Below are positions 4,908 to 63,115 of a stretch of DNA of 64,000 nucleotides, piece by piece. The translations under genes were made by a program, and so were the position numbers. This stretch comes from Antechinus flavipes (lineage: Eukaryota), in contig NC_067399.1 of NCBI RefSeq assembly GCF_016432865.1, positions 1,922,001 through 1,986,000 of the forward strand, read 5' to 3'. The notes beneath the pieces were generated by a model. It saw only the letters and a list, made by a program, of their open reading frames with translations. It was not told the origin of the DNA and did not search any database. Positions within the stretch are counted from its first letter, which is position 1. Every line of letters starts with the position of its first letter.

Positions 4908-5121
4908 GTAATCGGGATCGTGGAACCAGCGGCGCGAGAGCCTAGGCGGTGTTCTCAGAATGAGGCGCCCGAGGTCAGCAGGGGCTGCGAGAGGCCTGGG
5001 GGGGTGGGGGCTTGGCCAGGGGGCAGGGATCTACCGGAGAGGGGCGCCGGGGGGCAGGGCCTCTCCCCGCGAGCCCCCTGCCACGGTCTTGTGTGATTCC
5101 AGGTGCCTTCCGGCGGGAAGG

Positions 5122-8100
5122 ATGGACTTGGGCAAGAGCAAGCTCCTGCGCACTGGCCTCAACGCCCTGTACCAGGCGATCCATCCCATCCACGGCATCG
5201 CCTGGACCGACGGCAAGCAGGTGATCCTGATGACGCTGCAGCTGCAGAACCAGGAGCCCAAGTTCGGGAACTCGCGCATCATCGGGCAGTTCGAGCACGT
5301 GCACGGGCTGACCTGGAGCCCCCCGGGTGTCAGCGGCAGCCCCACGCTGCTGGCGGTGCAGCACAAGAAGCACGTGACCGTGTGGCAGCTGTGCGCCAGC
5401 CCCTCGGAGCGGAGCAAGCTGCTGGTGTCGCAGACGTGCGAGATCGGGGAGCCCTTCCCCGTGCTGCCGCAGGGCTGCGTCTGGCACCCCCACAAGGCCA
5501 TCCTGACGGTGCTCACCAGCCGCGACGTCTCCGTGCTGCACTCGGTGCACTGCGACAACTCGCGGGTGAAGGCCGACCTGGTCAAGGTGCACGGCTTCGT
5601 GCACTGCGCCTGCTGGACCCGGGACGGCCAGCGGCTGGTGGTGGCCGTGGGCAGCGCGCTGCACTCCTTCACCTGGGACGAGGCGCAGAAGGCCCTGCAC
5701 CTGTGCTCCTGCTGCCCCGTGTTTGAGGTGGGCAGCCCCATCTGCTCCGTGCTGGCCACCGTGGACATGCAGATCGCCGTGGCCACCGAGCTCCCGCTGG
5801 ACAAGATCTGCAGCCTGGGCTCCATGGAGGCCCTGGAGATCTCCCCCTCGTCCCGGGCGGGCAGCACGCAGCCGCCCTTCACGGACCCCCGGAAGACCAC
5901 CGGCAACTCGGAGCCCTCCTCCTCCTCCTCCGCGTCCATCTCGTCTTCGTCCCTGGATTCCCTGGTGCTCTCTCAGATTCTGCCCAGGAGCTCCCGGTCA
6001 GACTCCAACTCGCTCTTCAACCTCCGAGACAAGGACTGCTTGTCTGCCATGGATCAGGACTCCTCCCATCTGGTCCTGGTGACCTTCGACAGGATGGTCA
6101 CCGCCACCCGCAAGGTGGGCATCCCCGGCATCCTGGTGCCGGACATGCTGGCCTTTGACCCCCGGTCGCAGGTGGTCGCCGTGGCCTCCAACATGTGCCA
6201 CATCATCCTGATCTACGCGCTGGGCTCCTCGCTGGCTCCCAGCGTCCAGTGCATCCGGCTGGAGTCCTGCGAGAGGCCCAAGGGCATCTGCTTCTTGTCC
6301 GACAAGCGCCTGCTGATCCTGGTGGGGAAGCAGAAGTTCACGGACCCCACCTTCCTGCCCTCCTCCAAGTCCGACCGCTACACCATCCGCCTGGTCATCA
6401 GGGAGATCAGCTTCGAGGAAGAGCCCTCCTGGAGGTCCGTCTGGAGCCAGCAGGACTTCTGCAACGTCAAGGTGACGCTGGGCATGCCCACCAAGAAGAA
6501 GCTGGGGGAGAGCCACTACCCTATCTTCTACCCCCCGCGGAAGGAGCTCCTCCTCCCCGGGAGCCTCACCATCCACTCGCGGACGAGCGGCAAGACCCTG
6601 ATCGAGGAGATCTCGGAGCCTTCCCAGAGCTCCAGGTTCAACTCGCCGCCGCCCCCCACCGCCGCCTCTGCAGAAAGGCCGGAGGCCGGCCCTGGCCTCC
6701 AGCCCGCGGCCCTCCCCAGCCCCCACGCCGGGCCAAACTCCCCGAAGAACCACTGCCGCCTGATCCACGAGCCCCTGAACCTTCCCCAGGGCCAAGCCGC
6801 CAGCAACGAGAAGGAGGAAAGTCGGCTGTGCGCGACGCTGGACAGGCTGTCCGGGAACTTCACAGACCTCCACCAGCGCCTCTCCGAGCTCCTCGAGCTC
6901 CTGCGCAACCAGAAGCAGTCGCCCGCCCCCACCAGTTACCCGCACTCTCAAGACCCATGTTTTCTTCTCATCACCTGCCAGGTAACTGGGGGAGCTTCCT
7001 CTGTCCCCCACCCCCTAGACGAGTGGAGTCCTGGGTGTGTTGGGGCGGGGGGCTCTCCCGATTTCTGTATTGGCATCTGCTTTGGTGACGGGCGGGAATC
7101 ACTCACGGTTGGTGAGCCGAACGGACCCTTCTGTTAGGATGAGCGTTTCTTTAATCGTTGGCAGGACGCAGAAAGCAGAGTGCGCTGGGAAGCCATTTTG
7201 AACCTTGAGGTCTGTGGTTTCTTTGGGTTTTCGGTTCCCGTGTCCGTGACTTGGGAGGTCCCTGTCCCGTCCCCCTGAAGCTTGTCCAGCATTCATCGGG
7301 CAGGGATCGGGCAGAGCTGGAGCAGGGGCTTCTCACCCCTCCCGCTAGGTCACTCCTCGGACGGGGATTCCCTTCACTGATGCAGATCGCAGCATAGCAC
7401 CCTAATACGATGCTGTAAGGTTTGCAGAGCACTTTGTGGATGGGGTTTCATCTGCGCCTCATTCTTCGCTGTTGGAGACGATTTTAGACAAATATTAAAT
7501 ATGGCGCCTTTTTTTTTTTTTTTTTTTTTAAAGTAAAAGAGGCTATTTTCATTTGGCCAACATGAGGAACCTTAGGTTAAAAATTCATTCTCTTTACTTT
7601 CTCTTGTTCATCCAGTTGTAAAAGAGATAGGAACCTTCTTGCAAGGAAGAAGCTATTTCTGATTGGAGTGGAAGGGTTCCTTTTCACATCCTTGTTAGGC
7701 AGGACCAGTGGCCGCCCAGGCGGCCCCACGGCTGGGGGCGAGCCTCTTCCAGAGCCCCGTGGAGTTCTATCGGGATGGCCCCTCGCTGGAATCCCAGAAC
7801 CTAACACGGCACTCATGGTGGGGGGGTAGGGGGGGAGGGAGTGACCGCGCAAGCAGGGGCTGGCCAGGAGCTGGGAGACGCACAAAAGCAGTGATCTGAG
7901 GAGAAATGGTATCTGGGAGGAAGATGGGACATAGCTCACTCTGACTGGGACAGGAAAATGTTCTTTCGAGTCAGTTCTGTTAAAACTTTCTTTGGGGGAA
8001 ATGGGGAGTTTCCATGAAAAAGTATTCATTTTGTGTGTGACAAAATATGGCTTAAATATTTTAAAGCTAATTTTAAAAAATCCTCATCTTTTACCTTAAT

Positions 8101-23063: not shown

Positions 23064-26000
23064 TCAGGGACCCTCGGTCAAAGCGGTGGCTCCACTTTGG
23101 GCTCTGCTGGGACTGGGGGTCCTGGACACGGGCACCTCGTTCCTATGGGAGGAGAAGAGGGAGAAGAGAGCCAAGCTGAGGGGGGGCTCCCGCTCCCACC
23201 GGCCCCCGTGCCCTCTCTCCGAACCGGGCCCCCTCTCTCTCCACCCCACCCCATTTGCTCAAACCCTGAGGACAAGATGGCCCCCTCCGTTCCCCAAGCA
23301 GCTCCTCCACCAGCCCCCGCTTCATCTCCTAGCCAACTGCCCCCCCATTTTGTCTCCCCTAACTATTCTCTCTTGCTGCTGCTTTGGGTCTGCCCAGCTC
23401 TGAATCCTGGGCCCTCGCTGACCACTACCCTTCTCTCTCCCCGGTTCCCCTTCTCCCCGAGCCCCAGGTCAGCGCGACCAGGCTGGGAGTGCGTCGGGCC
23501 CGCGCGTGTCCGCTCCCGCTGCCCACCTCAGCGCGTCCAGCTCGCGGGCGATCTCCTGGCGCCGCTGCTCGGTGATGGGGTACGCCGACAGGATGGCCAG
23601 CCCCAGCAACACCATGCTGGTGGGGACGGCTCCGATCAGGACCTTGAGCGCCAGCACCGCCTGCTCAGACTGCTTACAGGCGCCGGACTCGTACCCTGCG
23701 AAGCTGAGACGCCCCCGTAAAGCCTCCGCCCTCCCCGGCTCGGGGCCCACAGCGGGGGCCCCCGAGGACAGGGTGTCCCTGTGAGACGGGACCGGGGAGG
23801 GAGGGTGGGGGCCAGGGGGCTGACTCGGCGGAAGGGATCTGTCTCGGGATCTCCCCAAGCCCTGGGACATGAGGCGGGCAGATCGGCCAGGGATGAGCCC
23901 AAACACTCCAGAAAGGAAGCTGAGGGAGCTCCCTGGGCCCCAAGGCTGCATAAGGAAGCCAGGCGCCCCCAGCCCCCTGACCCTGCTGGGCCCCCAGGCC
24001 CCCTCAGACCCCCTGGTCGCCCCTGGGCCCCCGCCCAGCCTCAGTCACTCACTCCAGGCTCAGGGTGGAGATGCCCAGGGCCCCGGCCCCCGACAGCTTG
24101 GTGAAGAAGACATAGGAAGAGTAGAAGATGGTTTCCAGGCCTTTCGGAGCAGGTTTCTGGAGCCTGAAGTCATCCACAACATCGGGCAGCATGGACCTGG
24201 GACAGAGCCCCCCAGTGTCTGTGACCCCCGGGGGCCTCCCCGCGAGCGCCCCCTTCCCCCTCTCTGTCCCACCCCGGGGCATCTGCGGGGGAGAGCGCCA
24301 GGCCCAGAGTCAGGAAACCGCGAGTTGGGATGGGTTCCTCCCCTGCTTGGGCCTCCCTCCCCGGCCATCCAGAGGGCAGTGAGGGGAGGATTGTGGGACG
24401 CTCAGCACGGGCCTGGGCACACAGGAGGGGCCACGTGCCCCCCACCCCGGGCCAGAAGCTCCGGGGCCTCCGCCATTCCCAGCCTCCCCAGCCTGTCTGG
24501 GCACTGACCGGACCCTTCCAGCTTGCCTTTGCCAATCCCAGAGCCCCGCTCCGGTCCTGCCCGCCTGCCTTCGATGCCCCTGCCCCGGCCCACCCGGAGG
24601 AGCCTGGCCCCGGCCACCTACCAGGGCAGCAGCGAGGCCACGGCAATGCTGGCACCGGACACGAAGGCCATGCTGTAGGCCACGGGGGCGGTGGGCACGG
24701 CTGCCAGCAGGAGCGCAGAGGGCACCATGGCCTGTGGAGGGGAGGGGGCCGTCAGAGGCCGCCTGAACCCCCCCTCAGCTGGGCCCCCTCCCGCTCACTC
24801 ACCCCGATCCCGCAGGCTGCGGTCTTCTTCCCCACTTTCTGCAGGAACCATTCCCAGAAGGGGGTGCTCAGGACAGCTGCCACCTTGGGGGGCGGGGAAC
24901 CGGGCTGTCGTCACCATGGGGGGCAGGGAGCTCCAAGCCCACCACCGCCTCCCACTGGTGACCAACACCTGCTGTGCGGGGCCTCCCCCCCCATACCCTG
25001 CTCCCTCCCCCATCCCCCGCCTCAGGGCCCCCCTCACCAGCACCAGCAGCACCAGGTTCTGCGTGTGGCTGTGCAGGGGGCCCGCGTGGGTGCAGAACAG
25101 GACCAGATAGCTCTGCTGAACCTGTGGGGGCGGGAGGCCAGCGGCTGTCGGGGGACCCCAGAACCCCGGCCCCTCCCGCTGCCCCTCCCCCCCGCCCGGG
25201 GTCCTGGGGGAGCCTTCTGGAGGGGGGGGAGAAGTCTCGGCCTTCAGGCACCTTCGCAGCCTCCTCCCCTCACTCGGGCCATCCCGGGGCTCTCCGAGGG
25301 CGGGGCGGGTTGGGGGAAGGGGCCGGGCCGGAGGTACCTGGACGGCGGCGGAGATGAAGAGGAAGGCAGCCACGAGCCGCTGGTAGGGCTGGTGCCGGAG
25401 GGTGCGGCCGAGCCCCTGGAGGAAGGAGAGCCCCTGGCGCTGGAGGCCGCCGAGATCTGGAGGCCGCGGCAGGCAGGGGTTAGAAGAGTGCCCGCCCCGG
25501 GTTCCCCCGTTCGTCCCCGGGTCCCCCGCCCGCCTCCCCCGTCACCGTCTTCCTCGGAGGTCCCCAGGGCCAGCAGGGCCGCGCACAGGGGGTAGGTTCC
25601 CGCGACGACCCCGGCGGCGATCATGTAGAGCTGGCTCTGTGGGAACGGCACGGTCACCAGGGGGCGCCTCGGCCCGCCCCCGCCGCTCCCCCAGAAGGGC
25701 CCCGGCTCACCGTGTGCGGAGGGGTACCCGAGCCCAGGGAGGGCGGCGGGGCCGTGAGGTTGGCCTCCGGGCACGTGGGGGCCTCGTGGGCGCCGGCCAC
25801 GATGAGACCGTGGGCAGTGGCTCCAATCAGCGTGCCGGCCATCTCCGCGGTCATCCCTGGGGGGGGGGGGAGGGGAAGAACAGGGCCAGGGTCACGAGCT
25901 CACCCCTCCTCCACCCAGCCCCCAAAGTGAGCCTCAGGAGTGACCAGGAAGCCCTCAGCCTCATCCAGGCTCCCTCCCCTTCCCCGAGAACGGGGCTGTC

Positions 26001-27934
26001 TTCTGCCTTTGTGTTTCTAGTGCTTGGCACACAGTAGGCACTTAATAGTTGCTCATCAAGTTAGGGAGCCCCGGACAACCCCAGCCCCGCCCCCCCTTCT
26101 CCCCCACTCACGATAGGCAGTGGCCGAATCTCTCTCCTGCTGGTCCCGAGTGAGGAACATGGTGAGGGCGGAGTAGGGGACCTGGAGCAGCTGGAGGAGG
26201 GGGCGCGTCAGCGCCTCCGAGGGAGGCACCCCCCCCCCCCGCCCAGCGCCGAGGGGAGCACTCACCGTGGACAGCGCCTGGAAGAGGCAGTAGAAGGCCC
26301 CGTACCAGAGCGCCCGCAGCCGGCCCACGGTGGGCAGGAACCACAGCAAGAAGTAGGTGAGGGCCAGGAAGGGCGAGCAGCTCAGGATCCTGGGGGGCGG
26401 GAGGGTGAGCCGGCCTCCGTCCTGAGGGGCGGGCCCCTACCTCCCCCGCCCCCCTCCCGGGGGCCCGGGATCGCAAGGCGCCCTCCCCCCCGGGGCTCAC
26501 CAGGGGGTCAGGCGGCCCAGGCGGGTCCGCGGGCTCCGGCTGACGAGGAATCCGGCCGCGGGATCGGCCGCCGCCCCCGACAGCTTTCCCGCGAACAGGA
26601 CGAGCGAGGCTTGGGCCGCGGGGATCTGGGGCCAGAAGAACAGAAGTGAGAGGGCGCCGGGCCTTCCCGGGAGGGGGCGCTCTGGGCGGGGGCGGGATGC
26701 TCTGGGGGGAGGGGGCGCTCGGGCAGGGGGCGTGCTCTGAGCCGGGGAGAAGGGACTCTGGCGGGGAAGGGGGGCGCTGGGCGGGGGGGGGAACTCTCTG
26801 GCCGGGGAGGGGGGCTCTGGGCGGGGGGGGGGTGCGGCGGGAGGCCCTCACCCTGGCCACATCCAGCAGGAAGAGCTGCAGGTAAAAGGCTGCGGCGCTG
26901 GAGGCTGCCTGGTTGGGGGCTCCCCCAATGCTGTAACAGAGCTTAGAGATCACTGAAAGGCGCCCGCCGGGACCGCCCTGGGGAGAGACGAATGTCAGCG
27001 CGCCCGCCCCCTCACGGGGTCCCGGGTTCAGAGCGGGCGGGAACATCTGGTCCGCGGACTCCCGCTTCCTCCGGGGCAGCGCCGGCTCCTTGGCGGGGGG
27101 GGGACTCCTAATAAATGCTCAATTAATGGGATCGAGTGAGCGGAAGAAGGGCAGAGAGCAAAGCCCTGTCTTGAGGGACTCCAAGGCCAAGAGCGGGCGG
27201 AGGCCCGGATAGAGTTGGGTCCAGCCCCGGGGTCCCGGCCCCTGCTCTCTCTGGGAACCTCACGAGCCTCCGGACACAGGGCGGCCGCCGCTCCCGTTGG
27301 GACGGTCCCGCTTCGGTTCCTACTTAGGGAATGTTTGAGCGTGAGTGTGAAAATGAGTGCGTGCATAAAGATGTGTGAGCGTGCCTGAGTGAGCAAGTGA
27401 GTGTGCGTGAGTGTGAGAATGTGTGAGATCTCAGGCAAGGCGGGTGCTCCAGCAGAGGCTCCCCCCGCGCCCCCCAGCTGGGTGAGAGGGCGGCCCGCTG
27501 GAGCCGAGCCCCGTGGCCCCCCTCGGCCTCGGGACTACGGAGAAGCTGCGGGGGGAAGCGTCCTGGGGAGGAGGGGGCGCCCGGGGGCCCCACCAGCCGC
27601 CCCAGCCCGTCCCTGGGCCCCAGCTAGCCGCTTATCTCGCCCTCACACTTCCCCAGCCAGGGAAAGCCAAGTCATGGGCAGCGGGGGTGGGGTAGGGGGG
27701 GAGAGCCCCCAGGCTCCGAGAAAGCATCGCCCTCCTCCCGCTCGGGGGCCCGCCGCCCGCGGCTGCCTCCCGGTACTCGCGGGAAACTGTGCGGGGAAGA
27801 AGCCCGCCCGGCCCCGCCGCTCTTCCTCCGGACGCTGCCCCCCCGCCCCTGCCCCCTGCCTTCACCTGAGGGGGCTCCTCCTCTTTCTCGAGGATCTGGG
27901 GGCCTGGGTCGCGGTCCCGAGTGGAAGCTGCCAT
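23064..27934 (-). CDS. MFSD2B: MFS lysolipid/sphingosine-1-phosphate exporter, 517 aa; complement join(27866..27934,26852..26977,26501..26625,26266..26389,26112..26190,25711..25856,25546..25636,25338..25456,25038..25121,24803..24883,24622..24731,24053..24196,23527..23703,23064..23142)
   Basis: Peptides [71 protein letters not shown] and [16 protein letters not shown]. All 13 introns are GT-AG and phase-consistent, total 1554 nt. Position between WDCP and UBXN2A indicates the 2B paralog. The first and last exons are inferred from splice signals and are less certain. Confidence 0.93.
27631..27652 (-). promoter_or_regulatory. Adjacent GATA (AGATAAG) and ETS (GGAAGTG) motifs in MFSD2B intron 1
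   Basis: Plus strand cttatct at 27631-27637 and cacttcc at 27646-27652; motif match only. Confidence 0.35.
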
Positions 27935-34500: not shown

Positions 34501-37447
34501 CTTCATTTCCGGGACGGACGCAGCAGTGATCTCGGGCCTCCCACCACCCCCAGGGACTCTGGGACAAGAGAGGGGCAACCAAAAGCCCCCCCCCCCCCAT
34601 CTTCAGACATTTGGTCACCAGCTCCCTGGAGGCTCTGTCCTGGCCACATACCCCTTCCTGATGGCGTTCAGGAACTGCTGGCTGGCCCCGTCCCCATAAC
34701 TGCGGAACTCATCGTTCACGGTGAACCCGTTCTTCCAGAGCTTAATGCTTACATCAGCCTGTAAGAGTCCACAAGGGAAACTGAGACAGTCAGGCCGGTC
34801 ACCCCCAGGGTTACCTGCTGGGGAGAGGCACTGGGAAAGAGCCAGCGGGGCCCACCTTGGACATTCTACTGGGAATCATCTCCCTGGCCCCTGCAAACAG
34901 AGCCACTCCCTATGGCAAAGGGATTCCCCCGAAGCCCCAAGAAGTGCCCTCAGCTCGGGGAGGCAGAACCCGACAATCCCCCAGGCTGGGAACGAGAGCT
35001 GGGGCTCCCACATGCGGCCCCAAAGCTGGGCAATCCCAGCAGCCACACGGTATGATCCACACCGGGGCTTGCCCCCCAACACCGTCCAGGCAGGCTGTTT
35101 CCCTCTCAGGCTTCAGCGTGTCCCTGGGAAATCGGGGCCAAGCACAACGGGGCTAACCCAACACCCGCTTCTCCCAGCCTTCTCTGGGAGCCACGTCCCA
35201 GACGGGCCATCCTCTGCTGCCCTGGCCCCAGCCTCTGGATGTCCCCCACCCCAGACACTGCACTTTCTGGGCATCTCCCTGGAGGGTGCTGCCCCAAAAG
35301 GAGGGGAGAGGAGCAGGTGGCTCTAATCTGGGGGCCCCCACCTCCCATAGTGGGGGGCTGCTCTAGCCTGGGGTCCCCGCCTCCCATGGTGGGGAACTGC
35401 TCGAGTCTGGGGTCCTTGTCTCCCATAGTGGGGGGCGGCTCTAGTCCGGGGCCCCTGCCTCCTGTGGTGGGGAGCTGCTCTGGCCCTCCAGCCCCCATAA
35501 CTTCCTGCAAAAGTCCCACCTCATCCTTGGGTGGGAGCTAAGTTTTGGAGGCCAGCAGCGACTGGACCAAAAGTTGGGACTGGGCACTAACACCCACCTG
35601 TCTTCTGTCGGCGGAGGGCAAGCACTCAGTGCCAACCTTCTGGGCTTCCTCCAAGAGGCTGTCGAAGAGCAGCTCGCAGCTTTTGGCCTGGCCACCATGG
35701 AGGGGCTGCCCTTCGGCGCCAGACTCACAAACCCTGTGGAGGCAAGGAGACCCTTACAGAAATATGGCCACGAGCCCCATCTTCACAGCCCCTTCAGCAC
35801 CCTGGTCAGCGCCTCCACAGGCCAATGACCGTGATTCCTTCCTAGCAGCCCCTTCAGCACCATGGTCAGTACCCCCATAACAAGGATATGGCCATGATTC
35901 TCCTCCTAGCACCCTGGTCAGCGCCTCCACAGGCCAATGACCGTGATTCCTTCCTAGCAGCCCCTTCAGCACCATGGTCAGTACCCCCATAACAAGGATA
36001 TGGCCATGATTCTCCTCCTAGCACCCTGGTCAGAGCCCCCGCAGGACAATGGCCATGATTCCCCGCCTAACAGCCCTCTCAGCACCCTGGTCAGCTTCCC
36101 CCCCCCCCCCCCCCAGCAGCCCCATTCAGCACCTTGGTCAGCGCCCCCAAAGGATAATGGCCATGATTCCCCTCCTGACAGCCCCCCAGCTCCCTGTCAT
36201 CACCCCCACAACAGGGATGTGGCCATGACACTCCCCCCCCCACCCCGCCCTCTCAGCACCCCGAACCCAATCTCCATGTCCAGCCATTCAAGCCCCCATA
36301 CATGGAAATTAGCAGGAAGCAGATTTTAGTTACAAATTTAGCTTTTTTTCAAGGACTCAGACCCCTGGAAATACTTGGGGAGGGCGGGACCACCACTCCC
36401 AGTCCCAGAGAGGAGCCCAGGCTTGGAGGGAGCCAGCAGCCTCACTGCCCACTCCAAGCAGGTTTTGGGTTTCTCCCCGGAAGGGCTTCTTTGGGCCCTT
36501 CCCAGAATTCAGGCAGTGCCCCTTGTAGGCATCCCACAGACCCCTTTGGCTGCCCCCAGACCACTGACTTTTCTGCAGGGGGGAGGGGCTCCCTCCAGGC
36601 CCAGTAGGCAGGAGAGGGGCTCTGGGTCGGGGCAGGGGGATGCTGGGGGGCCATCCACTCACTAGCACTGTATATAGAAAAGAATGGGCCATGGGAGCGG
36701 ACAGTGAAGAAGTTTGAGGGCACATGGCCCTTCGTTTCTCATTTCCTGGCACGGGCGCTGCTCACGTGGAGGAAGCACTGGCCGGCTGACGCCAAAGTTT
36801 CCCTTAATGCAGGCGGAAGGACACCTGCCCGACAAAGCAGTCTATTGGTCAAAGATCCTCCAGAGACGGCCGCTGGTGCAGGGGGTGGAGTGCTGGGCGT
36901 CGAGTCAGGAGTTCAAATTCAGCCTTAGACACTTCCTAGCTGTGTGAGTCTGGGAAAGTCACTGCACCTCTGTCTACCTCAGTTTTATCAACTGTAAAAT
37001 GGGGATCATTAACAGCACCTGTATCTCAGGTTTGTTGTGAGGATCAAAAATATAGTTGTAGAGAGCGCTAGCACGTTGGTGCACAGTGGGGGCTCTGGAC
37101 CTGCCTGCTGCTTTCCCTTCCCCTTTCCCCTATGAGCCCCAGAGACTTTGAAATTGTCCATATTACTGGGAGAATCTGGGTGAGGAGGCACCTGAAAGGG
37201 AAACCGAGGCAGGGAGAAAAAACCTGTGCCTCTCACAGGAGCCCTCAAACTCCAAAGCCTGTCACCAGTAAGCAAATGGCAGCTGGCCCAGAGACATTTC
37301 CAGCTCCGGCTCCCAAAGGACACGGGGTGCAACCCAGTAGAAACAAAGAGTACCTGAGGGCTGGGGAAGGGGGAAGGGAAGCCCCGGCCGGGCCCTCCTC
37401 ACTCACCAGTCTTCTCGAAGGCTTTCTAGCTTCTCCACCTCCTTCAT
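31557..37447 (-). CDS. UBXN2A: UBX domain protein 2A (SEP domain, SHP box, UBX), 257 aa; complement join(37407..37447,35598..35733,34652..34758,33845..33982,33494..33652,31557..31749)
   Basis: MKEVEKLESLREDW / VCESG / IKLWKNGFTVNDEFRSYGDGASQQFLNAIRKG / ELPLELQGMFDKEEVDVKVEDK...FSGLGHRLGS / EPITSVQIWLADGKRLVQRFNVSHR / VSHVRDFI...TLEEAELQNAVVIQR. GT-AG junctions in phase, 774 nt. The first coding exon has 14 nt of UTR after an acceptor at 37462-37463. Confidence 0.95.
32490..32615 (-). mobile_element. CORE-SINE (marsupial type)
   Basis: gaggtagttggggttaagtgacttgcccagggtc...ggtcctcctgact...ccaccgcaccactggctgccc. Confidence 0.65.
35340..35480. repeat. Short tandem repeat of about 37-39 bp, 3-4 copies
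   Basis: ctcccatagtggggggctgctctagcctggggtcccc-like units in UBXN2A intron. Confidence 0.65.
35757..36270. repeat. Tandem repeat with 112-bp dimer period built from about 55-60-bp monomers
   Basis: gcaccctggtcagcgcctccacaggccaatg starts at 35797 and 35909; diverged monomers continue to about 36270. Confidence 0.85.
36885..37080 (+). mobile_element. MIR SINE
   Basis: gagtcaggagttcaaattcagcc...ctgtgtgagtctgggaaagtcact...ctgtaaaatggggat core. Confidence 0.8.
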
Positions 37448-49849: not shown

Positions 49850-50077
49850 ATGGTGAACACCCGGAAGAGCGCTCTGCGCCTCCTGGGCGGAAAGGCGGCC
49901 GGGTCCGGGTCCGGAGGGGCCGGCGGGGCGGCCGGCGGCACAGCCGGGTCCGGAGGCGGGCACTTCATCTCGTCCCGCACGCGCTCCTCCAAGAGCCGCG
50001 CGGCCGGAGCCAAGGCGGGCCCGGGGGCGGCGGCGACGGCGGCCGGAGCTGGAGCCGGGGACCTGGACGACGCCCGG
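49850..50077 (+). CDS. ATAD2B: ATPase family AAA domain containing 2B, coding exon 1 (76 codons); later exons not found in this window
   Basis: MVNTRKSALRLLGGK...HFISSRTRSSKSRAA...DLDDAR matches the recalled human MVNTRKSSLRLLGSK...HFISSRTRSSKTRAA...TLDEAR. Kozak gctgccATGG; donor CGG|GTAAGA at 50077/50078. Confidence 0.93.
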
Positions 50078-51314
50078 GTAAGAGCCCGGACCCCTGCCGG
50101 CCGGCACTTATCGAGCGCCTGCTGTTTGCCCGGCTCTCCGGGGCGTACGGGGGGCGGCCTGGGGTGTGGGCGCTTCCTTCTCCCCTGTGCCCCCGCGGCC
50201 CCCTCGTAGTGCTCTCTGCCCCCGGCTGTGGCGGAGTGAACCCCCTTTCCCCCGACGGCCTTCCTTCCTCGACCTCCCCCAGCTGTCGGGTCGCGCTCTC
50301 CCCCGTCCTGGCTCGAGCTTCTGCGCCCATTGTAGCGGCGAGAACGCCGGGGCCCGGAGCGCCCTGGGAGCTCGTTGGCGCTGCCCGGCCTGTCGCAGCT
50401 TGCGGCCCCACGGTAGGGCTGTGCCCGGGCCCCCGCACGCCCCGGGGATCCCGTGTTCCCCCCTCCCCGCGCGGGGGGCAGAGGCCGTGAGCAGACGGGC
50501 CCCCCGAGTTAGGGCCCTCTCACGGGGGAGGGCAGCGGCTGCCACGCGCTTCCTCCTCGCCAAAGCATCGAGGCTCAATGACGGGCTCCCCCAGCGCCGA
50601 GAAGGGGGCGCTTGCTCAGCGGGGCCCGAGGCGGGCGGGCCGAGGGTCTGGCAGCATTCGCACTCGGGCCCTGGGCCCGCCGCCTTCCCGCCGCCTTCCC
50701 CCGCCGGTTTCATTTTTTGTGCGCGCAGGGATCCGCTTTCCCCAAAATAGAGAGATTCCGGCCGGCCCGTTGGGGGCCGGCGGGGTGAGCTTGGCCCAAG
50801 GGAGCGGCCTTCTCCCGGGGCTCCCACTGGGGGGCGGCGGCACGGGGGCCCTCCGGGAGTCGGGCAGTAGTGAAGGCCCGCGGTTCCAGCGGGGGAGGGG
50901 GCGGGAGCCCCTGCGGGCACCCCTCCCCGTGTGGCCCCCAGAGGGAGCTGTGGAGGCGCGGGGAGCACCCGGGCGCCTCTGAGGGCCGGAGCCTCGCCCG
51001 CATCTTGGCATTGGCCGGGTGCCAGGGGCCGCCTCAAGGAGCTTCTTGCGCCAGTGAGCGGGCAGAGTCTGGGCTGGTACCGGTTTGCCCTCCCAGTCTT
51101 CGCCCACCTTTCCTGACCGCCCCCTCCCCCTCAGAGAAGGAATAAGAAGGGGCGAAAGCCCCAGCCCGGCCAGAGTTAAGCAACAGGTTGGCCAGATGGG
51201 CTCCAGACGCGCCCCACCTCTGCCGGGAGGGGCTGAGTCAGGAGTCTTGCGCCACTTCGGCCTCTTGGGTTGACATTGTTGTCTAATGATGGTTTTCCTG
51301 GTTCCTGGGGCGGC

Positions 51315-52880
51315 TTCTGGGGAGGCTCCCCCCCGTCCCCCCAAGGTTCCCCCAAGGTTCCCTTTGGCTGCCTCTGTCACTGTTAGGAACGGCTTCCGGG
51401 GAGGCTCCCCCCCTGTCCCCCCAAGGTTCCCCCAAGGTTCCCTTTGGCTGCCTCTGTCACTGTTAGGAACGGCTTCCGGGGAGGCTCCCCCCCTGTTCCC
51501 CCAAGGTTCCCTTGGCTGCCTCTGTCACTGTTAGGAACGGCTTCCGGGGAGGCTCCCCCCCTGTCCCCCCAAGGTTCCCCCAAGGTTCCCTTTGGCTGCC
51601 TCTGTCACTGTTAGGAACAGCTTCCGGGGAGGCTCCCCTCCTGTCCCCCCAAGGTTCCCCCCAAGGTTCCCTTTGGCTGCCTCTGTTAGTGTTCCCCCCT
51701 GTCCCCCCGAGGTTCCCTTTGGCTGCCTCTGTTAGTGTTCCCCCCTGTCCCCCCCAGGTTCCCTTTGGCTGCCTCTGTTAGTGTTAGGAACGGCTTCCGG
51801 GGAGGCTCCCCCCCGTCCCCCCAAGGTTCCCCCAAGGTTCCCTTTGGCTGCCTCTGTCACTGTTAGGAACGGCTTCCGGGGAGGCTCCCCCCCTGTCCCC
51901 CCAAGGTTCCCCCCAAGGTTCCCTTTGGCTGCCTCTGTCACTGTTAGGAACGGCTTCCGGGGAGGCTCCCCCCCTGTTCCCCCAAGGTTCCCTTTGGCTG
52001 CCTCTGTCACTGTTAGGAACGGCTTCCGGGGAGGCTCCCCCCCTGTCCCCCCAAGGTTCCCCCCAAGGTTCCCTTTGGCTGCCTCTGTCACTGTTAGGAA
52101 CGGCTTCCGGGGAGGCTCCCCCCCTGTCCCCCCAAGGTTCCCCCTGAGGTTCCCTTTGGCTGCCTCTGTTAGTGTTCCCCCCGTCCCCCTGAGGTTCCCT
52201 TTGGCTGCCTCTGTTAGTGTTCCCCCCAAGGTTCCCCCCCAGGTTCCCTTTGGCTGCCTCTGTTAGTGTTAGGAACGGCTTCGGGGAGGCTCCCCCCCGT
52301 CCCCCCAGGTTCCCCCCAAGGTTCCCTTTGGCTGCCTCTGTCACTGTTAGGAACGGCTTCCGGGGAGGCTCCCCCCCTGTCCCCCCAAGGTTCCCCCCAA
52401 GGTTCCCTTTGGCTGCCTCTGTCACTGTTAGGAACGGCTTCCGGGGAGGCTCCCCCCCTGTTCCCCCAAGGTTCCCTTTGGCTGCCTCTGTCACTGTTAG
52501 GAACGGCTTCCGGGGAGGCTCCCCCCCTGTTCCCCCAAGGTTCCCTTTGGCTGCCTCTGTCACTGTTAGGAACGGCTTCCGGGGAGGCTCCCCCCCTGTC
52601 CCCCCAAGGTTCCCCCTGAGGTTCCTTTGGCTGCCTCTGTTAGTGTTCCCCCCTGTCCCCCCCAGGTTCCCTTTGGCTGCCTCTGTTAGTGTTAGGAACG
52701 GCTTCCGGGGAGGCTCCCCCCCGTCCCCCCAAGGTTCCCCCAAGGTTCCCTTTGGCTGCCTCTGTCACTGTTAGGAACGGCTTCCGGGGAGGCTCCCCCC
52801 CTGTCCCCCCAAGGTTCCCCCCGAGGTTCCCTTTGGCTGCCTCTGTCACTGTTAGGAACGGCTTCCGGGGAGGCTCCCTG
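51315..52880. repeat. VNTR of about 69-80-bp units with about 37-bp truncated variants, in ATAD2B intron 1
   Basis: Unit gttccctttggctgcctctgtcactgttaggaacggcttccggggaggctccccccctgtccccccaag(gttccccccaag); copies start at 51357 and 51437. Confidence 0.95.
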
Positions 52881-53047
52881 CTTGACCTCCTCCGAGCCTT
52901 CACGTTGAGCGGCCGGCCCCGTAATAATGCTTGCCTGGGTTCCGAGTCTCGGTTCTCTGACTGTCTCTGGGAAAGGAGCTGCCCGAAATGTCCGGGGGCC
53001 CAGGGGCCTCTGCTCTGTGCTCCCCGTGGGACACCCGGGGACTTCCG

Positions 53048-53488
53048 TGTAATGGGCTGAGGCTTGAGTTGATGCACTGAGGTCCCAAGCACATGAGGCT
53101 AAATAGTAATTGGACCATACTCTATTAATAGATAAGCTTGGAGAGAGAATGGCCCCCACCCACTCTTTGTGCAAGTCCTGATGTGTTGTATAGGAAATGA
53201 CGATTTTGGTGGGTGGAGGCAGGGGAGTGGAGAAGGAAGGGGAGGAGAGACCTTTGGGACGGCCATTGCCTCAGTTGCCGACACAGTTGCCTCCATGGTT
53301 GCCTCGGCTCGCGTCGCTCTCTCTTAGCTGGCTTCCTGTCGCAACTGCCTATATTTGCTATCGCAATCTTTCTTGCCTATATTTGCTATAGCAATCTTTA
53401 TTCACCTCTTCGCTTCAATAAATATTGAAGATTTTCCCCTTAACCTGAATTCCTGACTCCGGCTGACTTTAAATACGCGGTCATTACA
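53048..53488 (+). mobile_element. Complete ERV2 (betaretrovirus-like) LTR, 441 bp
   Basis: TGTAATG...CATTACA terminal inverted repeat; AATAAA at 53417-53422; followed by tt and a PBS. Confidence 0.92.
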
Positions 53489-53490
53489 TT

Positions 53491-53508
53491 TGGCGCCCAA
53501 CGTGGGGC
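53491..53508 (+). other. Primer binding site for tRNA-Lys1,2
   Basis: TGGCGCCCAACGTGGGGC, the 18-nt complement of the tRNA-Lys(CUU) 3' end used by betaretroviruses. Confidence 0.93.
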
Positions 53509-53509
53509 T

Positions 53510-53984
53510 AAAGCTGCCTCAGATTCACCCCGCCCTTGAGCCTCACTTAAGTCTTCATGCCCTGTGGGGATATGGCCATTAATCTGTTCTTTGTCTTCCT
53601 CCTTTACCTCAGGCTTCCGCATTTGGCCATTCTTAGAGTTTTTTCCTTTTCTCCTAAAACTAGTACGGTATTTTAAGGCCATCTGTATCGTATTATATAA
53701 ATAGAATGCCTCGAAGGGAACTGACTGAGAGTTGTCAATGTTATAATCAGAGATCTGTTGACCAACCAATGCCCAGTTACCCAGAGAGATTTGCTCTTCC
53801 TCTAAGAACCCAGGGGAGGTAAGTTTTAATGTACTCAAAAGTTTAGCTGCGTGTTCCAAGATACAACTAGCCCTTCCTCTTCTATCAGGTCACGCAGGCT
53901 TTTTATAACACCACTCCTGGGTGGGGCAGGGGTTGGGGGGTTTGGGGTGGGGGATGGAGAATCTTTACCTAGGATCTGTCCCAT
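53510..53984 (-). pseudogene. gag: Inverted, truncated ERV gag 5' end (matrix domain) with one frameshift
   Basis: ATG at 53984: MGQILGKDSPSP...SLRDLIEEEGLVVSW, a 1-nt frameshift, then HAAKLLSTLKLTSPGFLEEEQISLGNWALVGQQI...VPFEAFYLYNTIQMAL. This resembles betaretroviral MA (MGQ start, PWF.EE...W..VG pattern). The 3' breakpoint is uncertain. Confidence 0.8.
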
Positions 53985-54005
53985 TTCAGCCAAAAAGTTA
54001 CTGCG

Positions 54006-54118
54006 TTGAAGTCAAGAGGAAGGGGAGGAGATGGCTCAGTGGATAGAGCACTAGCCTTGAAGTCAAGAGGACCTGAGTTCAAATCCAGCCTCAGACACTT
54101 AACAAACAGTAAAAGTAA
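54006..54118 (+). mobile_element. tRNA-derived SINE head inside the ERV remnant
   Basis: A-box tggctcagtgg and B-box gagttcaaatcc; the 15-mer ttgaagtcaagagga occurs twice (about 54006 and about 54056). Confidence 0.75.
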
Positions 54119-54119
54119 G

Positions 54120-54356
54120 TGGAGGCAACCGTGGCAATGGCAGTCCCAAAAGTCTCTCCTTCCCCTTCCTTCTCCACTCCCCTGCCTCCACCCACCAAAA
54201 TCGTCATTTCCTATACAACACATCAGGACTTGCACAAAGAGTGGGTGGGGGCCATTCTCTCTCCAAGCTTATCTATTAATAGAGTATGGTCCAATTACTA
54301 TTTAGCCTCATGTGCTTGGGACCTCAGTGCATCAACTCAAGCCTCAGCCCATTACA
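54120..54356 (-). mobile_element. Inverted partial LTR (U3 5' end) of the same ERV
   Basis: 54161-54356 is the exact reverse complement of 53048-53243; flanked on the right by cttccg (54357-54362). Confidence 0.92.
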
Positions 54357-57300
54357 CTTCCGGGCCCGGGTCCCGGCTGCTCTCCAGGAGGACCGGTCCC
54401 CCCTCAGAAACGCATCTCTTTTCTCACCCTCAGGAAAGAGGAGCCGTTGCCCGCAGGCTGTGCAGCCCGGGGAGATGCCCGCCCGTGTCGGTGCCCGCTC
54501 TGGGCCTGTCAGCAGGGCGTGAGCTTGGGCCGGCAGGCGGGGGCGCCCGTCCCCTGACTCTTTGTCAGCTGCTGGAAGGCTCTTGGTCTCAAACCCCTGA
54601 GTCACTGATTTCATTCGAGGCTCTTTTCTCCAGTCTCGTTCCTTGGTTCCGTTGTCAGTGCAGACCCGCTTTTTCGGGTGTTTAAGCCCCCGCTCCCCCC
54701 AGATTCTTCCCTGCCCTCGGCAGGTCCGAGCTGCCGTCGCCCTCGGAGAGCTGACGGGCGCTTCCCTCCTTTGTGCCCTAGTTGTGGCGCGGGGAGTCCC
54801 TCCCGGTGCTCACCCCGTGGCGCTTGACGGGCCCGGCATCCGGGAGCGCTGCTGAGTGGGTTTGAGGGGCGCTGCTTTGTGGGCCAGTGTGAGGTCGGGG
54901 ATCGCCGGGCGTCCACTTTTTCCCATTAAACCCTGTCCTTTGGCAACTGCCTTGAGCAAGATGGGAAGCCCAAGGTCATTGCGGTAGTCTGCGGCAGCGA
55001 AGGGGGGAGGGGGACCTCATGGCCCAGCTAGCTGCATGACCCGGACAAGCCCCTTGTCCCTCTTCCCCCAAGTTTTCTCACCTGTAAAGTGAGACGCAGA
55101 AGGGCAGGGCCCACACTCCAAGCTCTCTGCCAAGAAAGTGGGTCTCAGAGACCGGGCCGGGACCGGAAGAGTCTGGGGGCCTGGCCTGGGGGGATTCTGA
55201 GGGTGGGGGAGCCGCTCACTGCAGAGAAGGCTGCCTGTGGCTGCCGCGGAGACCCGGGCCTCTGGCTGGGCCGTTCTGGGACGCCGGCTCCAGTGGTGAG
55301 GCCGGGGTGCGGCCGGAGTCGCCGCCTGCAGCTCCAGATCCTCCGCTCCCTTTGGGAAGGCGGGAAAAGGAGCGCCCGCGGTCGGGGCAGACAAGTGTCC
55401 GAACCGGCCAGCCTGAGGCGCAGCCGGGCTTCCTGGGGCTCCCTGCGGAGGCCCAGCCCGGGTGGTCGGTGCCGGGAGCCTTTCGTAGCCCACTATCCTA
55501 TTGCATCCCTTCCTCTTCCAGCTTGTTCTAAGCCTTTCTTGTCCTTCGTTAGGGCGTTGGGGTGCTCCCTCTCCACCCTGAGGGACAGCCCCTGGTGGGG
55601 TCAGGGTCATCCGGAGCAGCGCGTGGGGCAGCCCAGCATGGGAGAAGACTGGGGAGGTTCTGGAAGGCTTTGAATGCCATGTGGAGGGTTGGAGATCTGG
55701 TCCTGAGGCCAGAGCGAGCCGCAGGCGTTTAGGAGTGGGGACGGCGGTTCTGCCGTGGTCAGAAAGTGAAGGGTCTGAGAAGAGGGGCCTCGAAGGCCAG
55801 ATCGCTGACAGCTGACAGAGTGAGCCCCGGAGGACGGCACCTGAGCTGGGAGAGGGGGCAGAGTTCCGGGGAAAGAGCCTCCACTTGGGGACGATGGGAA
55901 GGCAGGAGAGAAATCGGGCCTGGACAAGGCCGTGGGAGGATCCGGAGACGCTGGTCAGGCCAAATGGCCAAGAGGCCAGAGGGGAGCCCAGTCTGGTCCT
56001 GAGAGGCCCTGCGGCTGGGGGGCATCCAGCAGGGGGGAGGGGGAACCTGGAGAAAATGGGGGCAAGGTCGGATGACTGGTAGGGAGGGAGAGGGATGTGG
56101 GGGAGAAGGGAGCAGAGGTCGTAGCTGTCTCGGGGGGTGATTGGGAGAAGTGGGGTGCAGCGAACAGAAGGGGTCGGCAGTGAGATACCTAGGAGACAGG
56201 AGACAGGGAGGGAAAGGAGGGAAATGTGCAGAAGGGCCCTTCTCTGGCCTTAAAAACAAGCCCTTTTCCACGTGGGGGCTGCCGGGGAGCCACGCCAGGG
56301 CGCTCAGGAGCAGCTCCGGAGGGATGGCTTCCGTGGCTGCAGAGACCAGTTCACAATTAGAGAAGCCCCCTTCCCCCCGAAGCTCTCGCGATCCCCCGGC
56401 TCCCTCAGCGCGCCTGTGTCTGAGGCCGCTGTCCGGCCCCCTCCCACCCTGCCGGTGCCCTTTAACCTCACGCCCCATCCCGCACCCTTTGCGTTTTGTT
56501 TGTGGGGCTCCCCCATGAGGTTGTGAGCCCATCGGGGCAGGCTCTGTTTTTTGCCCCCTTTTGCTTCCCCCGCCCTTAGCACAGTGCCTGGCACACAGTA
56601 GGAGCTTGATAAATGCTTGTTGACCCATTGACTTTCTGCAGCTCTGCCTCCTCTGACCGTCCTGTGACGGGGAACTCAGGGTCCTTCTGCAGCTGGTCAG
56701 GGACGGTCGGAACTTTGGGGGGGCTGGCCTCAGCGCTCTGGGACACAAGCCCACCCCGGCCAGTTTGCCCGTTCCTTTTTTGAAAGTCGGGGAAACGGTC
56801 GCTTCTCTTTGCTCCGGCTGGCCCTGGCTGGACTCTGGAAGCCCCTCGGGGAGGTCAGCCTTCCCGCCCCCCAGGTGTCATGGACCGGGGGCCTCAGACT
56901 TGTGCCCGGCCAGCCTGCGGCACGGGCCTGCGCTGGGGGCCAACTTCCTCGCCCCCGCTCGCCTTCGTTGGGTGATGGGTTGGGGCGTGGGGTTGCTAGA
57001 CCTCAGACGGGGCCCTGGGCCGGGCACGGACACTTCACGAGCTTGTTCCTCACGGGGACTCGGGGTCCAGCTGCGAGGCCGGAAGGAGCCGGGTCAAGTT
57101 CCTTCTTGACTTGGCTCCGTTCACCCGGAGGAGAAGCTGCAGACACGAGGAGCCTTTCTGTGGGAGAAGGTGGGCAGCCCCCTGGATGTCCGCCCGCAGG
57201 ACGCCGCCCTGACACGCTGCCCGGCTCTGGCCCTTCGTGCGCCTGCCAGGTCACCTCTGTGCAGATTAACTGGACCGGTTCCCGAAGGCCCCTTTGGTGG

Positions 57301-57934
57301 GTGGGCGGCGCTCACCGTGCTCTGGACAGTGGACTTGCCTCCTGATTCGTGGGGGCCACAGCGCACGAGCAGGGGGCTCTGCCAGGTTCAGGGCTTGGAT
57401 GTCATTGGTGGGCAAGAGCCAGCCCAGGGACTGCCCGCCCCCAAGGAGCTCTCCCCATCTTGGACCCAGACCGGATTCTCCGACCTGAGGGAGAGAGGTC
57501 GCCTCGGGCCTCCCCGTGTCTCCCGGGGCCTCCCTGCTCCCAACTACGGGCAGAAGGCCGTGGAGCAGGGGGATCGCTCCAGGCAGACCTGCTTCTGATG
57601 TGGGCAGAGACCCCTTTGGGGGAGGGGCCGCAGGTGCTGATGGAGCCCACACTCTGTCACGGTCTGCGGAAGGGCGGCCCCGCGGGCGTCAGGTGCCAGG
57701 TGGGCAGACCATGGTCTGGGCAGCTTATCCTGGTGGGAGCCACCGGCAGCCTGTGTGTGTGTGTGGGGGGTGAGTGTGAGCATCAGCCCTTTGTAAGCTG
57801 GGGCCCTGGGTCGTGGCCGGCCTTTGACTTGGTGAGCGCCTTCTCGCGCCGGGCGAAGTTGTCGAGAACCCCGGTGACTTTGTGCTTCTCCGAGCCGCGT
57901 CGGGCGCAGTCTCTGTTGCCACCATTGCCTCAGG

Positions 57935-58072
57935 GCTCCCGCGGCTCTCGGGGCTCCCGCGGCTCTCGGGGCTCCTGCGGCTCTCGGGGCTCTCGGGGCT
58001 CCCGCGGCTCTTGGGGCTCTCGGGGCTCTCGCGGCTCTCGGGGCTCCCGCGGCTCTCGGGGCTCTCGGGGCT
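57935..58072. repeat. 9-bp tandem repeat (cggggctct / cgcggctct)
   Basis: About 15 copies, directly visible. Confidence 0.9.
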
Positions 58073-58279
58073 GGTTGTTTCCGGGCCCCCTCGGGCCCTG
58101 TGGGTTTTGGTTTCCTCTTTGGCCGGGTTACGCTTCTGCCTTACGCCGGCGTGGGTCGGCTGTCCCTGCTTTACCCCTGATCCCTGGGAAAGGTCTCGAG
58201 CCGATCACGTCGGCTCTTGGGTTTAGGTCCGTCGGGTCACAGAAAGACCCATTTATTCCTTTGCTTTCTAGCACTGTCT

Positions 58280-58415
58280 TTTTTTAAGCTGAGGCAATTG
58301 GGGTTGAGTGAGTTGCCCAGGGTCCCACAGCCAGGAAGGGTTTCTGAGGCAGGACTCGAACTCGGGTCCTCCTGACCTCAGGGCTCTAACCACTGCAGCA
58401 CCTAGCGGCCCCTGC
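58280..58415 (-). mobile_element. CORE-SINE (marsupial type)
   Basis: T tail, gaggcaattggggttgagtgagttgcccagggtc...gaactcgggtcctcctgac...ccactgcagcacctagcggcccc. Confidence 0.75.
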
Positions 58416-62994: not shown

Positions 62995-63115
62995 TCTGGG
63001 ACAGAGCCCCAGGAGGACCTGAGATCAAATCTGGCCTCAGACACAGAACACTTCTTAGCTGTGGGACTCTGGGCAAGTCACTTAGCCCCAATTGCCTCAA
63101 CAGGAAAAAAAAGTT
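62995..63115 (+). mobile_element. CORE-SINE (marsupial type)
   Basis: ggaggacctgagatcaaatctggcctcagacac...gggcaagtcacttagccccaattgcctc followed by an A tail. Confidence 0.75.

Follow-up and report, generated by a model that had tools for sequence, protein, structure and literature searches.

How can a retroviral insertion end in U3 on both sides and still lie between short direct repeats of the kind that integrase makes? The question is raised by a 1,309-bp insert at positions 53048-54356 of the window, the 64-kb stretch of Antechinus flavipes DNA analysed here. It is bordered by CTTCCG on the left (53042-53047) and on the right (54357-54362), which form a direct repeat: among lengths of 4-9 nt the flanks match at 6 only, and at none of these lengths do they match as reverse complements. 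Two random 6-mers would be identical by chance with p ~1.1e-3 (flank composition) or 5e-4 (window composition). The first-pass annotation had placed a full LTR(+), a PBS, gag(-), a SINE head and a partial LTR(-) between these repeats, with U3 at either end, and this structure was confirmed. Copying of host DNA into an inverted duplication, or fold-back copying into the flank, was rejected, since apart from a 7-nt match the flanks are not reverse complements of each other and are otherwise unrelated.

Inverted repeats are a problem for long-read assembly, so a fold-back chimeric read, or two ERV copies mis-joined beside a GC-rich minisatellite, could produce such a structure. A 1.5-kb minisatellite does end about 170 nt upstream of the element, and the family to which we assign it, MEBrv 3, is high-copy (PMC11334065). 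A fold-back, however, would have mirrored the flank too, whereas the flanks share only the direct 6-mer; moreover, the arms are not identical throughout, the junctions fall at biologically defined positions and the window contains no N. We therefore consider an assembly artefact very improbable.

Judged by its sequence, the insert is a relic of MEBrv 3, an env-less, high-copy betaretroviral ERV family of Dasyuridae (Harding et al. 2024, PMC11334065). Its left part is a complete LTR of 441 nt (53048-53488, plus strand), with U3, R and U5 and TG...CA ends, attributed to the family by eye against the PMC11334065 supplement; it carries TATA-like motifs at 53350 and 53378 and AATAAA at 53417. After a gap of 2 nt follows an 18-nt PBS (53491-53508, plus strand), identical to the 18-mer found 3' of the LTR in the MEBrv 1 record. 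On the opposite strand lies the 5' part of gag (53509-53984; matrix and linker, ~158 codons), with its ATG at 53984 and a frameshift near 53856, preceded by the last ~24 nt of the gag leader (53985-54008, minus strand; by eye against the MEBrv 3 record). We take the PBS to be of the tRNA-Lys(CUU) type.

The antisense gag matches PF02337 (Gag_p10) with E 3.6e-4, below the Pfam cut-off, and retroviral matrix proteins make up all nine PDB matches at E<=1, M-PMV ranking first (E 0.023). In the protein collection it matches Gag P0001 (E 1.7e-30, 60% identity) starting at Gag Met1, and the N-terminus of this protein resembles that of MEBrv 3 Gag in the published record. LTR, leader and gag were all homologous, by eye only, to the family representative dvERV6989, a diverged quoll copy, not the true parent, with an imperfect PBS and a different LTR. 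A dasyurid host is indicated by the WDCP exon in the window, which shares 596/619 positions (96%) with Sarcophilus, against about 70% for other Australian marsupials. Next to WDCP, an MFS_2 gene and a SEP-domain gene lies a probable coding exon 1 of ATAD2B (49850-50077, plus strand), so assigned on the basis of its N-terminal motif; a donor-like site follows at 50078. The element, 3 kb downstream in the same orientation, is probably in intron 1 of this gene, of which exon 2 was not located.

Both termini of the insert are TG...CA U3 ends. The right terminus is identical at 12/12 nt to the reverse complement of the U3 start and shares only the last 7/12 nt with the U5 end, a match which exists because the LTR carries its own 7-bp terminal inverted repeat; an ordinary U5 end on the right was thus rejected. 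The right arm (54120-54356, minus strand) consists of 237 nt of U3 without TATA or polyA motif, and the right half of the element also lacks R, U5, the PBS and the remaining leader. An unprocessed PPT junction was rejected at either end, as neither flank corresponds by eye to the PPT in the family record. Instead of the direct LTRs of a canonical provirus, with one U3 and one U5 end, the insert thus has two U3 ends, together with TG...CA termini and a TSD of family length: the published MEBrv 3 representative has by eye a TSD of 6 bp, at nt 23-28 and 7281-7286 of its record (PMC11334065), and 6 bp is also given for the betaretrovirus MMTV (PMC3790719). These features support the proposal that integrase inserted a DNA with two U3 termini, and the companion argument, that no single simple inversion explains the structure, is likewise supported.

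When the arm is aligned with the left LTR, the outer 195 nt are identical and five differences follow within the next 38 nt. The probability that 5/5 differences fall in the last 38 of 233 nt is ~9e-5, for a window picked post hoc, and two of the four substitutions show the state of the MEBrv 3 representative (by eye, in the published record). This suggests that two parental LTRs contributed to the element.

The inner junction is equally well defined. The sequence switches to antisense gag at the last PBS base (nt 18) through a 7-nt complementarity: the last 7 nt of the PBS (53502-53508) read as gag on the opposite strand. The first-pass annotation had noted the PBS and the inverted gag but had overlooked this complementarity, which is the main clue. 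The same 7-mer occurs by eye at the homologous gag position of the MEBrv 3 record (quoll representative, nt 1104-1110), and the retained part of gag contains no other site with 5-8 nt of complementarity. Gag P0001, with PPEEQ directly after the join, does not show the 7-mer, which counts against the mispriming explanation preferred below. A join within 2 nt of PBS nt 18 has p ~7e-4 if placed uniformly in a 7.3-kb element.

This position also bears on bimolecular integration, in which one intasome would have taken the U3 ends of two viral DNAs whose free ends were later joined by the host after long resection, or two insertions at the same 6-mer would have collapsed. Two parental LTRs are indicated here, and inverted LTR-element tandems with the target motif at their junction are described for Drosophila in the available part of PMC5932611. 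Between two 7.3-kb copies, however, ~1,000 inverted microhomologies of 8 nt are expected, so that a join exactly at the PBS end would be an unlikely choice (p ~7e-4), and the target 6-mer does not recur inside the element. We regard bimolecular integration as quite unlikely. The suggestion that two full molecules were placed tail-to-tail and later collapsed is less likely, because the internal join coincides with the last base of the 18-nt PBS, at which an intermediate of reverse transcription stops.

Our preferred explanation, to which we give a probability of about 0.7, is mispriming of strong-stop DNA on another plus-sense strand, which gave a U3-U3 DNA that was integrated normally, at the one locus known. 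Reverse transcription would first have produced plus-strand strong-stop DNA, U3-R-U5 with 18 nt of PBS, an anatomy that the left 461 nt of the element match exactly. Its last 7 nt would then have annealed to the 7-mer in sense-strand gag and not to the minus-strand copy of the PBS. As partner the model assumes another plus-sense strand, begun at a PPT-defined U3 end of its own and probably supplied by a different member of the family packaged alongside; extension of each strand on the other would have yielded a linear DNA with U3 at either end. Integrase would finally have processed either end to CA and inserted the DNA across cuts staggered by 6 bp; the end structure and the TSD are the visible traces of this step. 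The relic is then probably a dead-on-arrival MEBrv 3 integrant from a faulty second strand transfer. The 7-nt duplex is weak, which counts against mispriming. PMC3187697 reports that plus-strand synthesis runs on into the tRNA and that template switches without homology occur together with deletions and insertions; it also gives non-homologous switching as at least 1000-fold rarer than homologous, which speaks against the model. Intermolecular strong-stop transfer has been proposed for asymmetric HIV LTRs (PMC9278108, in part).

In place of a second R, U5, PBS and leader the element has a patch that would require a step separate from mispriming. A 15-nt piece (54006-54020, plus strand) is an exact duplicate of SINE sequence at 54057-54071, and a second 15-nt piece (54017-54031, plus strand), overlapping the first by 4 nt, is an exact copy of left LTR positions 53234-53248. 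They lead into the head of a tRNA-derived marsupial SINE without its body (about 54029-54103, plus strand), which is followed by 16 nt (54104-54119) before the right arm; the 16-mer at 54103-54118 has no second match in the window with up to 3 mismatches. The SINE head has a tRNA-like Rfam match of 27.5 bits, below gathering, and is matched by six further SINE copies of the window (82-92% over 26-46 nt); a tRNA gene was rejected, with 0 genes found by ARAGORN. None of the 62,678 15-mers outside the element is shared with the LTR (0/549 for pure purine or pyrimidine ones), and blastn and tblastn found no second LTR or gag copy and no other ERV pieces in the 64-kb window. The patch may come from a hop of reverse transcriptase onto co-packaged SINE RNA, with which its polarity fits, from an already rearranged donor, or from later repair of an initially longer, unstable inverted repeat. 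It requires at least three further switches, which lie outside the predictions of the model.

Short templated pieces and clustered changes near a junction are typical of MMBIR/FoSTeS repair, and both are present in the element. A normal provirus could have been rearranged by such multi-switch repair after integration, with its old TSD kept, the copying passing from the PBS to the opposite gag strand, then to SINE and LTR pieces, then to U3, and rejoining the 3' LTR end via the 7-bp inverted repeat of the LTR. It is this repeat, overlooked by the first-pass annotation, that leaves the route available; since U3 and U5 end in the same 7 nt, the right end by itself is no proof of integrase action. 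In addition, the PBS/gag 7-mer would be an inverted repeat in any MEBrv 3 provirus, as far as the published record represents them. Against this, both outer joins would have had to coincide precisely with points at which viral intermediates end, PBS nt 18 and the terminal 7 nt of the LTR; an arm copied from the 5' LTR of the provirus itself would lack the variants common to another family member (as seen in the MEBrv 3 record), and annealing of direct LTRs to a solo LTR is an easier repair of a provirus. We hold this route to be unlikely.

If strong-stop mispriming is the correct explanation, the locus is a natural germ-line record of a single concerted reaction in which betaretroviral integrase accepted a pair of U3 ends, and mispriming on a plus-sense strand can still yield an integrable product. 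The arms are predicted to pair end to end (-725 kcal/mol for the whole element, without shuffle control), and a host pre-mRNA across the element would likely contain a duplex of more than 230 bp and antisense gag. Lying in sense in the probable ATAD2B intron, the element could thus be a source of long double-stranded RNA and of antisense gag RNA, and could supply a polyA signal within the intron. A single dead copy with predicted effects only would be a curiosity. Because MEBrv 3 carries the misprime site in its own sequence, similar integrants may recur, and a doubtful extension is that this most abundant dasyurid ERV repeatedly yields U3-U3 integrants with the same junction, an overlooked germ-line class planting sources of hairpin and antisense-gag RNA in host transcripts. 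Such integrants would supply small-RNA triggers that the host could turn on an active ERV of its own. They would be missed by programs in which direct LTRs are a requirement, and inverted U3 pairs with a TSD and a PBS-end join go unreported by ERV annotation pipelines.

In the literature searched, where subscription journals and older J Virol are thinly covered, no natural U3-U3 integrant is described except for a passing mention in fish (PMC5210030), and the term U3-U3 is absent among the matches listed. The available parts of PMC12312487, PMC2939329, PMC6894440 and PMC12789967 contain no precedent, and among the matches examined the uses of "inverted LTR" include vector constructs, DIRS-1 and the sentence on the guppy. 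That sentence concerns a foamy-like ERV reported with an "inverted LTR", in a passage without ends, TSD or mechanism (PMC5210030), so that it may or may not be a precedent. The published MEBrv 1 and 3 records label their 3' LTR as "complement"; this is no precedent, as the MEBrv 3 sequence reads direct.

Non-autonomous LTR retroelements have two direct R, a PBS and a PPT and are copied in trans. In contrast to TRIM, ETn or recKoRV types, the relic has one R, a right arm without R and U5, and no PPT beside either U3; for this reason canonical reverse transcription cannot reproduce it. Terminal inverted repeats (237-nt arms) and a 6-bp TSD recall a TIR transposon or MITE, but here the arms consist of U3 from a retrovirus, and excision is not an activity of integrase. 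The element has neither pol nor env, whereas the clades of PMC11334065 are defined by RT phylogeny and loss of env. It is present once in the 64-kb window, and none of 340 scanned ORFs, from a total of 341 with at least 80 aa, matched a reverse transcriptase, integrase or transposase family (the 341st, the gag frame, was searched separately with PF02337; 478 ORFs of 45-79 aa lay outside the search). It is probably not a TIR transposon, and the idea of a self-copying TIR-like or non-autonomous class was not supported. DIRS elements are not known to make a TSD. DIRS-1 likewise has inverted LTRs around a retroelement, but uses a tyrosine recombinase and circular intermediates according to the available part of PMC5633606, whereas the relic has a betaretroviral matrix, a PBS and a TSD.

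Other likenesses are found among LTR-element integrants. In defective HIV-1 proviruses errors of reverse transcription, including intermolecular strong-stop transfer, are also integrated, and 2/78 non-clonal proviruses carry inversions; the LTRs of such defective proviruses stay direct, with one U3 and one U5 end, and none with two U3 ends is described in the available part of PMC9278108. Half-site integrations too join viral DNA to more viral DNA in either orientation, with one host-repaired end, often truncated, and large duplications or deletions (PMC5041404, in part), whereas here both ends are CA and the repeat is an exact 6 bp. The inverted Rover tandems similarly combine, at a single site, two halves of LTR elements that face opposite ways, but by double insertion with the target motif kept at the junction (PMC5932611, in part), and the relic has no internal target copy. 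With the published MEBrv 3, of 7.3 kb with direct LTRs and gag-pro-pol, it shares both LTR ends, the end of the leader, the 5' region of gag, the 6-bp TSD and the host family, as far as the record goes, and it differs in its 1.3-kb length, inverted U3 ends, truncated antisense gag and SINE patch.

The first-pass annotation had described an endogenous retrovirus with a U3 end at both termini, and this structure was borne out: an insert of 1,309 bp, at 53048-54356, lies between direct copies of CTTCCG. Among the lengths tested (4-9 nt), the direct copies match at 6 only, no length in the same range gives reverse-complement agreement of the flanks, and the chance of two matching 6-mers in the flanks is about 1 × 10−3. 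The direct target-site duplication (TSD) argues against an assembly artefact, which we consider very improbable. On the left stands a complete LTR of 441 nt that contains TATA-like motifs and AATAAA; after a further 2 nt comes an 18-nt PBS. The interior comprises antisense gag (53509-53984), a leader of about 24 nt, a patch of short templated pieces and the head of a SINE. Of the 12 terminal nt on the right, all 12 agree with the reverse-complemented U3 start and 7 with the U5 end; the right arm (54120-54356, 237 nt) stops before the TATA-like motifs and is therefore U3 only. A 38-nt piece identical to the U3 start of the element is followed by the PPT in the MEBrv 2 record of the PMC11334065 supplement; neither flank of the element is that PPT, which indicates that both ends were processed, as by an integrase. 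No second copy of the element was found within the window.

A perfect 7-nt inverted repeat (53033-53039 and 54365-54371) brackets the TSD symmetrically at a spacing of 2 nt, and a small hairpin could thus form at the inferred empty site; of 7,564 flank positions, 1 has a centred repeat of this kind, the pattern having been spotted post hoc. Upstream, a GC-rich minisatellite (about 51300-52880) ends about 170 nt before the element; the 6-mer of the TSD also occurs in its units, which are 69-81 nt long.

To judge from its sequence, the gag encodes a betaretroviral matrix: it scores E = 3.6 × 10−4 against the Gag_p10 profile, below the cut-off, its best PDB match is the M-PMV matrix (E = 0.023), and it is 60% identical to the Gag that it matches in the protein collection (P0001). 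A frameshift is present near 53856, and the reading ends at about codon 158. Comparison by eye with the representative of MEBrv 3 in the supplement of Harding et al. 2024 (PMC11334065), a quoll copy with a TSD that is likewise 6 bp, reveals homology at the start and end of the LTR, the end of the leader and the 5′ region of gag. MEBrv 3 is the env-less, majority ERV of Dasyuridae, with recent activity in quoll, dunnart and antechinus (PMC11334065), and the element reads as derived from it.

At the switch from PBS to antisense gag, the final 7 nt of the PBS (53502-53508) are gag codons on the opposite strand. The part of the tRNA primer copied in plus-strand synthesis is 18 nt. From its start at the PPT, this synthesis proceeds through U3-R-U5 into part of the primer, after which the strand has to switch to the PBS of the minus strand (PMC3187697). 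In the element, the left 461 nt have the anatomy of this plus-strand strong-stop intermediate, with antisense gag starting at its final base. By eye, the same 7-mer is found at the homologous gag position of the quoll representative (nt 1104-1110), so the complementarity between PBS and gag is older than the join. If a join were placed at random along a 7.3-kb element, the probability of its lying no more than 2 nt from the PBS end would be about 7 × 10−4, and some 1,000 further inverted microhomologies of 8 nt are to be expected between two copies. We infer that the strong-stop DNA acted as primer on a plus-sense strand. Against such mispriming count the shortness of the pairing duplex, the use of a representative that is not the true parent, and the collection Gag, in which the motif is not seen at the protein level. 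In the MEBrv 3 record (nt ~499-520), the PBS of the representative diverges from the 18-mer of the element after about 12 nt; speculatively, such a mismatch in the genomic PBS could make the regular second strand transfer less efficient and mispriming more likely.

The best model, with a probability of about 0.7, has two plus-sense strands, each begun at a PPT-defined U3 end, which would have paired through the 7-mer and been extended on each other, both U3 ends then being joined by integrase with a 6-bp stagger. Multi-switch repair after integration could draw on the terminal 7 nt common to U3 and U5, but it requires both outer joins to coincide with ends of viral intermediates and is unlikely; a bimolecular integration that later collapsed would leave the join at the PBS end unexplained, and is slightly less likely still.

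The patch between leader and SINE contains two exact 15-mers overlapping by 4 nt, one duplicating the SINE interior and the other copying the left LTR (53234-53248); outside the element, 0 of 62,678 15-mers match the LTR. The arrangement looks like repeated template switching. A hop of reverse transcriptase onto SINE RNA could have produced it, since, followed along the strand that begins at the right U3 end, the SINE has the sense of cDNA and stops close to the SINE 5′ end; equally, the patch could have been inherited from a donor already rearranged, or an inverted repeat that was longer at first could have undergone later repair. The core claim is unchanged by this choice, because it rests on the two ends and the PBS/gag junction. 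The SINE head is directed into the antisense U3 arm. With the first T4 run at 54419, Pol III transcription from the head (54029-54422) would yield about 390 nt of RNA antisense to U3.

The two arms are identical over 195 nt and then show 5 differences in 38 nt, a clustering with p of about 9 × 10−5 that is overstated, the interval having been chosen post hoc. By eye, two of the four substitutions have the state of the quoll representative, which suggests that the right arm came from a second family member rather than by later mutation. With 0 differences in 195 nt, arm divergence is below 1.5% (95%), indicating a young insertion, unless conversion homogenised the arms.

The gene region around the element is GC-rich and dense in minisatellites. 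The host genes are WDCP (4912-7134, forward strand), an MFS_2 transporter gene (23472-26436, reverse strand), from synteny presumably MFSD2B, and a SEP-domain gene (34618-34875, reverse strand), which we take, also from synteny, to be UBXN2A. The WDCP exon shares 96% identity with Tasmanian devil and about 70% with the other Australian marsupials compared, which places the host among the dasyurids, probably as a species other than the devil. An ATAD2B-type start motif at 49850 (forward strand) probably marks exon 1 of a gene that synteny also leads us to call ATAD2B; the element lies 3 kb downstream, in sense, probably in intron 1. Two ordinary SINE copies (58279-58374 and 63010-63110) are in opposite orientation and 78% identical over 101 nt, and a 9-bp tandem repeat (57929-58072) has a probably spurious match to Pfam collagen.

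As far as can be shown, the element is a single dead copy. It would gain interest if the junction recurs or if a hairpin of its inverted arms were a source of small RNAs; recurrence at other loci is plausible because the 7-mer is encoded by the family, at odds well below even.

Compared with known systems, the element differs from a canonical provirus, a self-copying non-autonomous LTR element, a DIRS element and a half-site integrant as described in PMC5041404. The likeness to a TIR element proposed in the first-pass annotation is outward only. Strand-transfer errors were studied in older virology literature, and an earlier precedent for a two-U3 integrant may exist; a search with most older and subscription virology literature outside its scope gave a single brief mention, of an 'inverted LTR' in a guppy ERV (PMC5210030). 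In the consulted part of PMC9278108, HIV proviruses have asymmetric LTRs or inversions, whereas none has the two-U3 form of the element. From nt 9671 onward, the MEBrv 2 record in the PMC11334065 supplement continues beyond its 3′ LTR with a U3 start of MEBrv 3 type in inverted orientation, which agrees with the element at 38 of 38 nt, and then with the PPT and upstream sequence; this tail is a nested insertion, of which the consulted text of that paper makes no mention. The element behaves like an aberrant provirus, a real-looking and unusual structure of specific proposed origin that is a variant of those already known.
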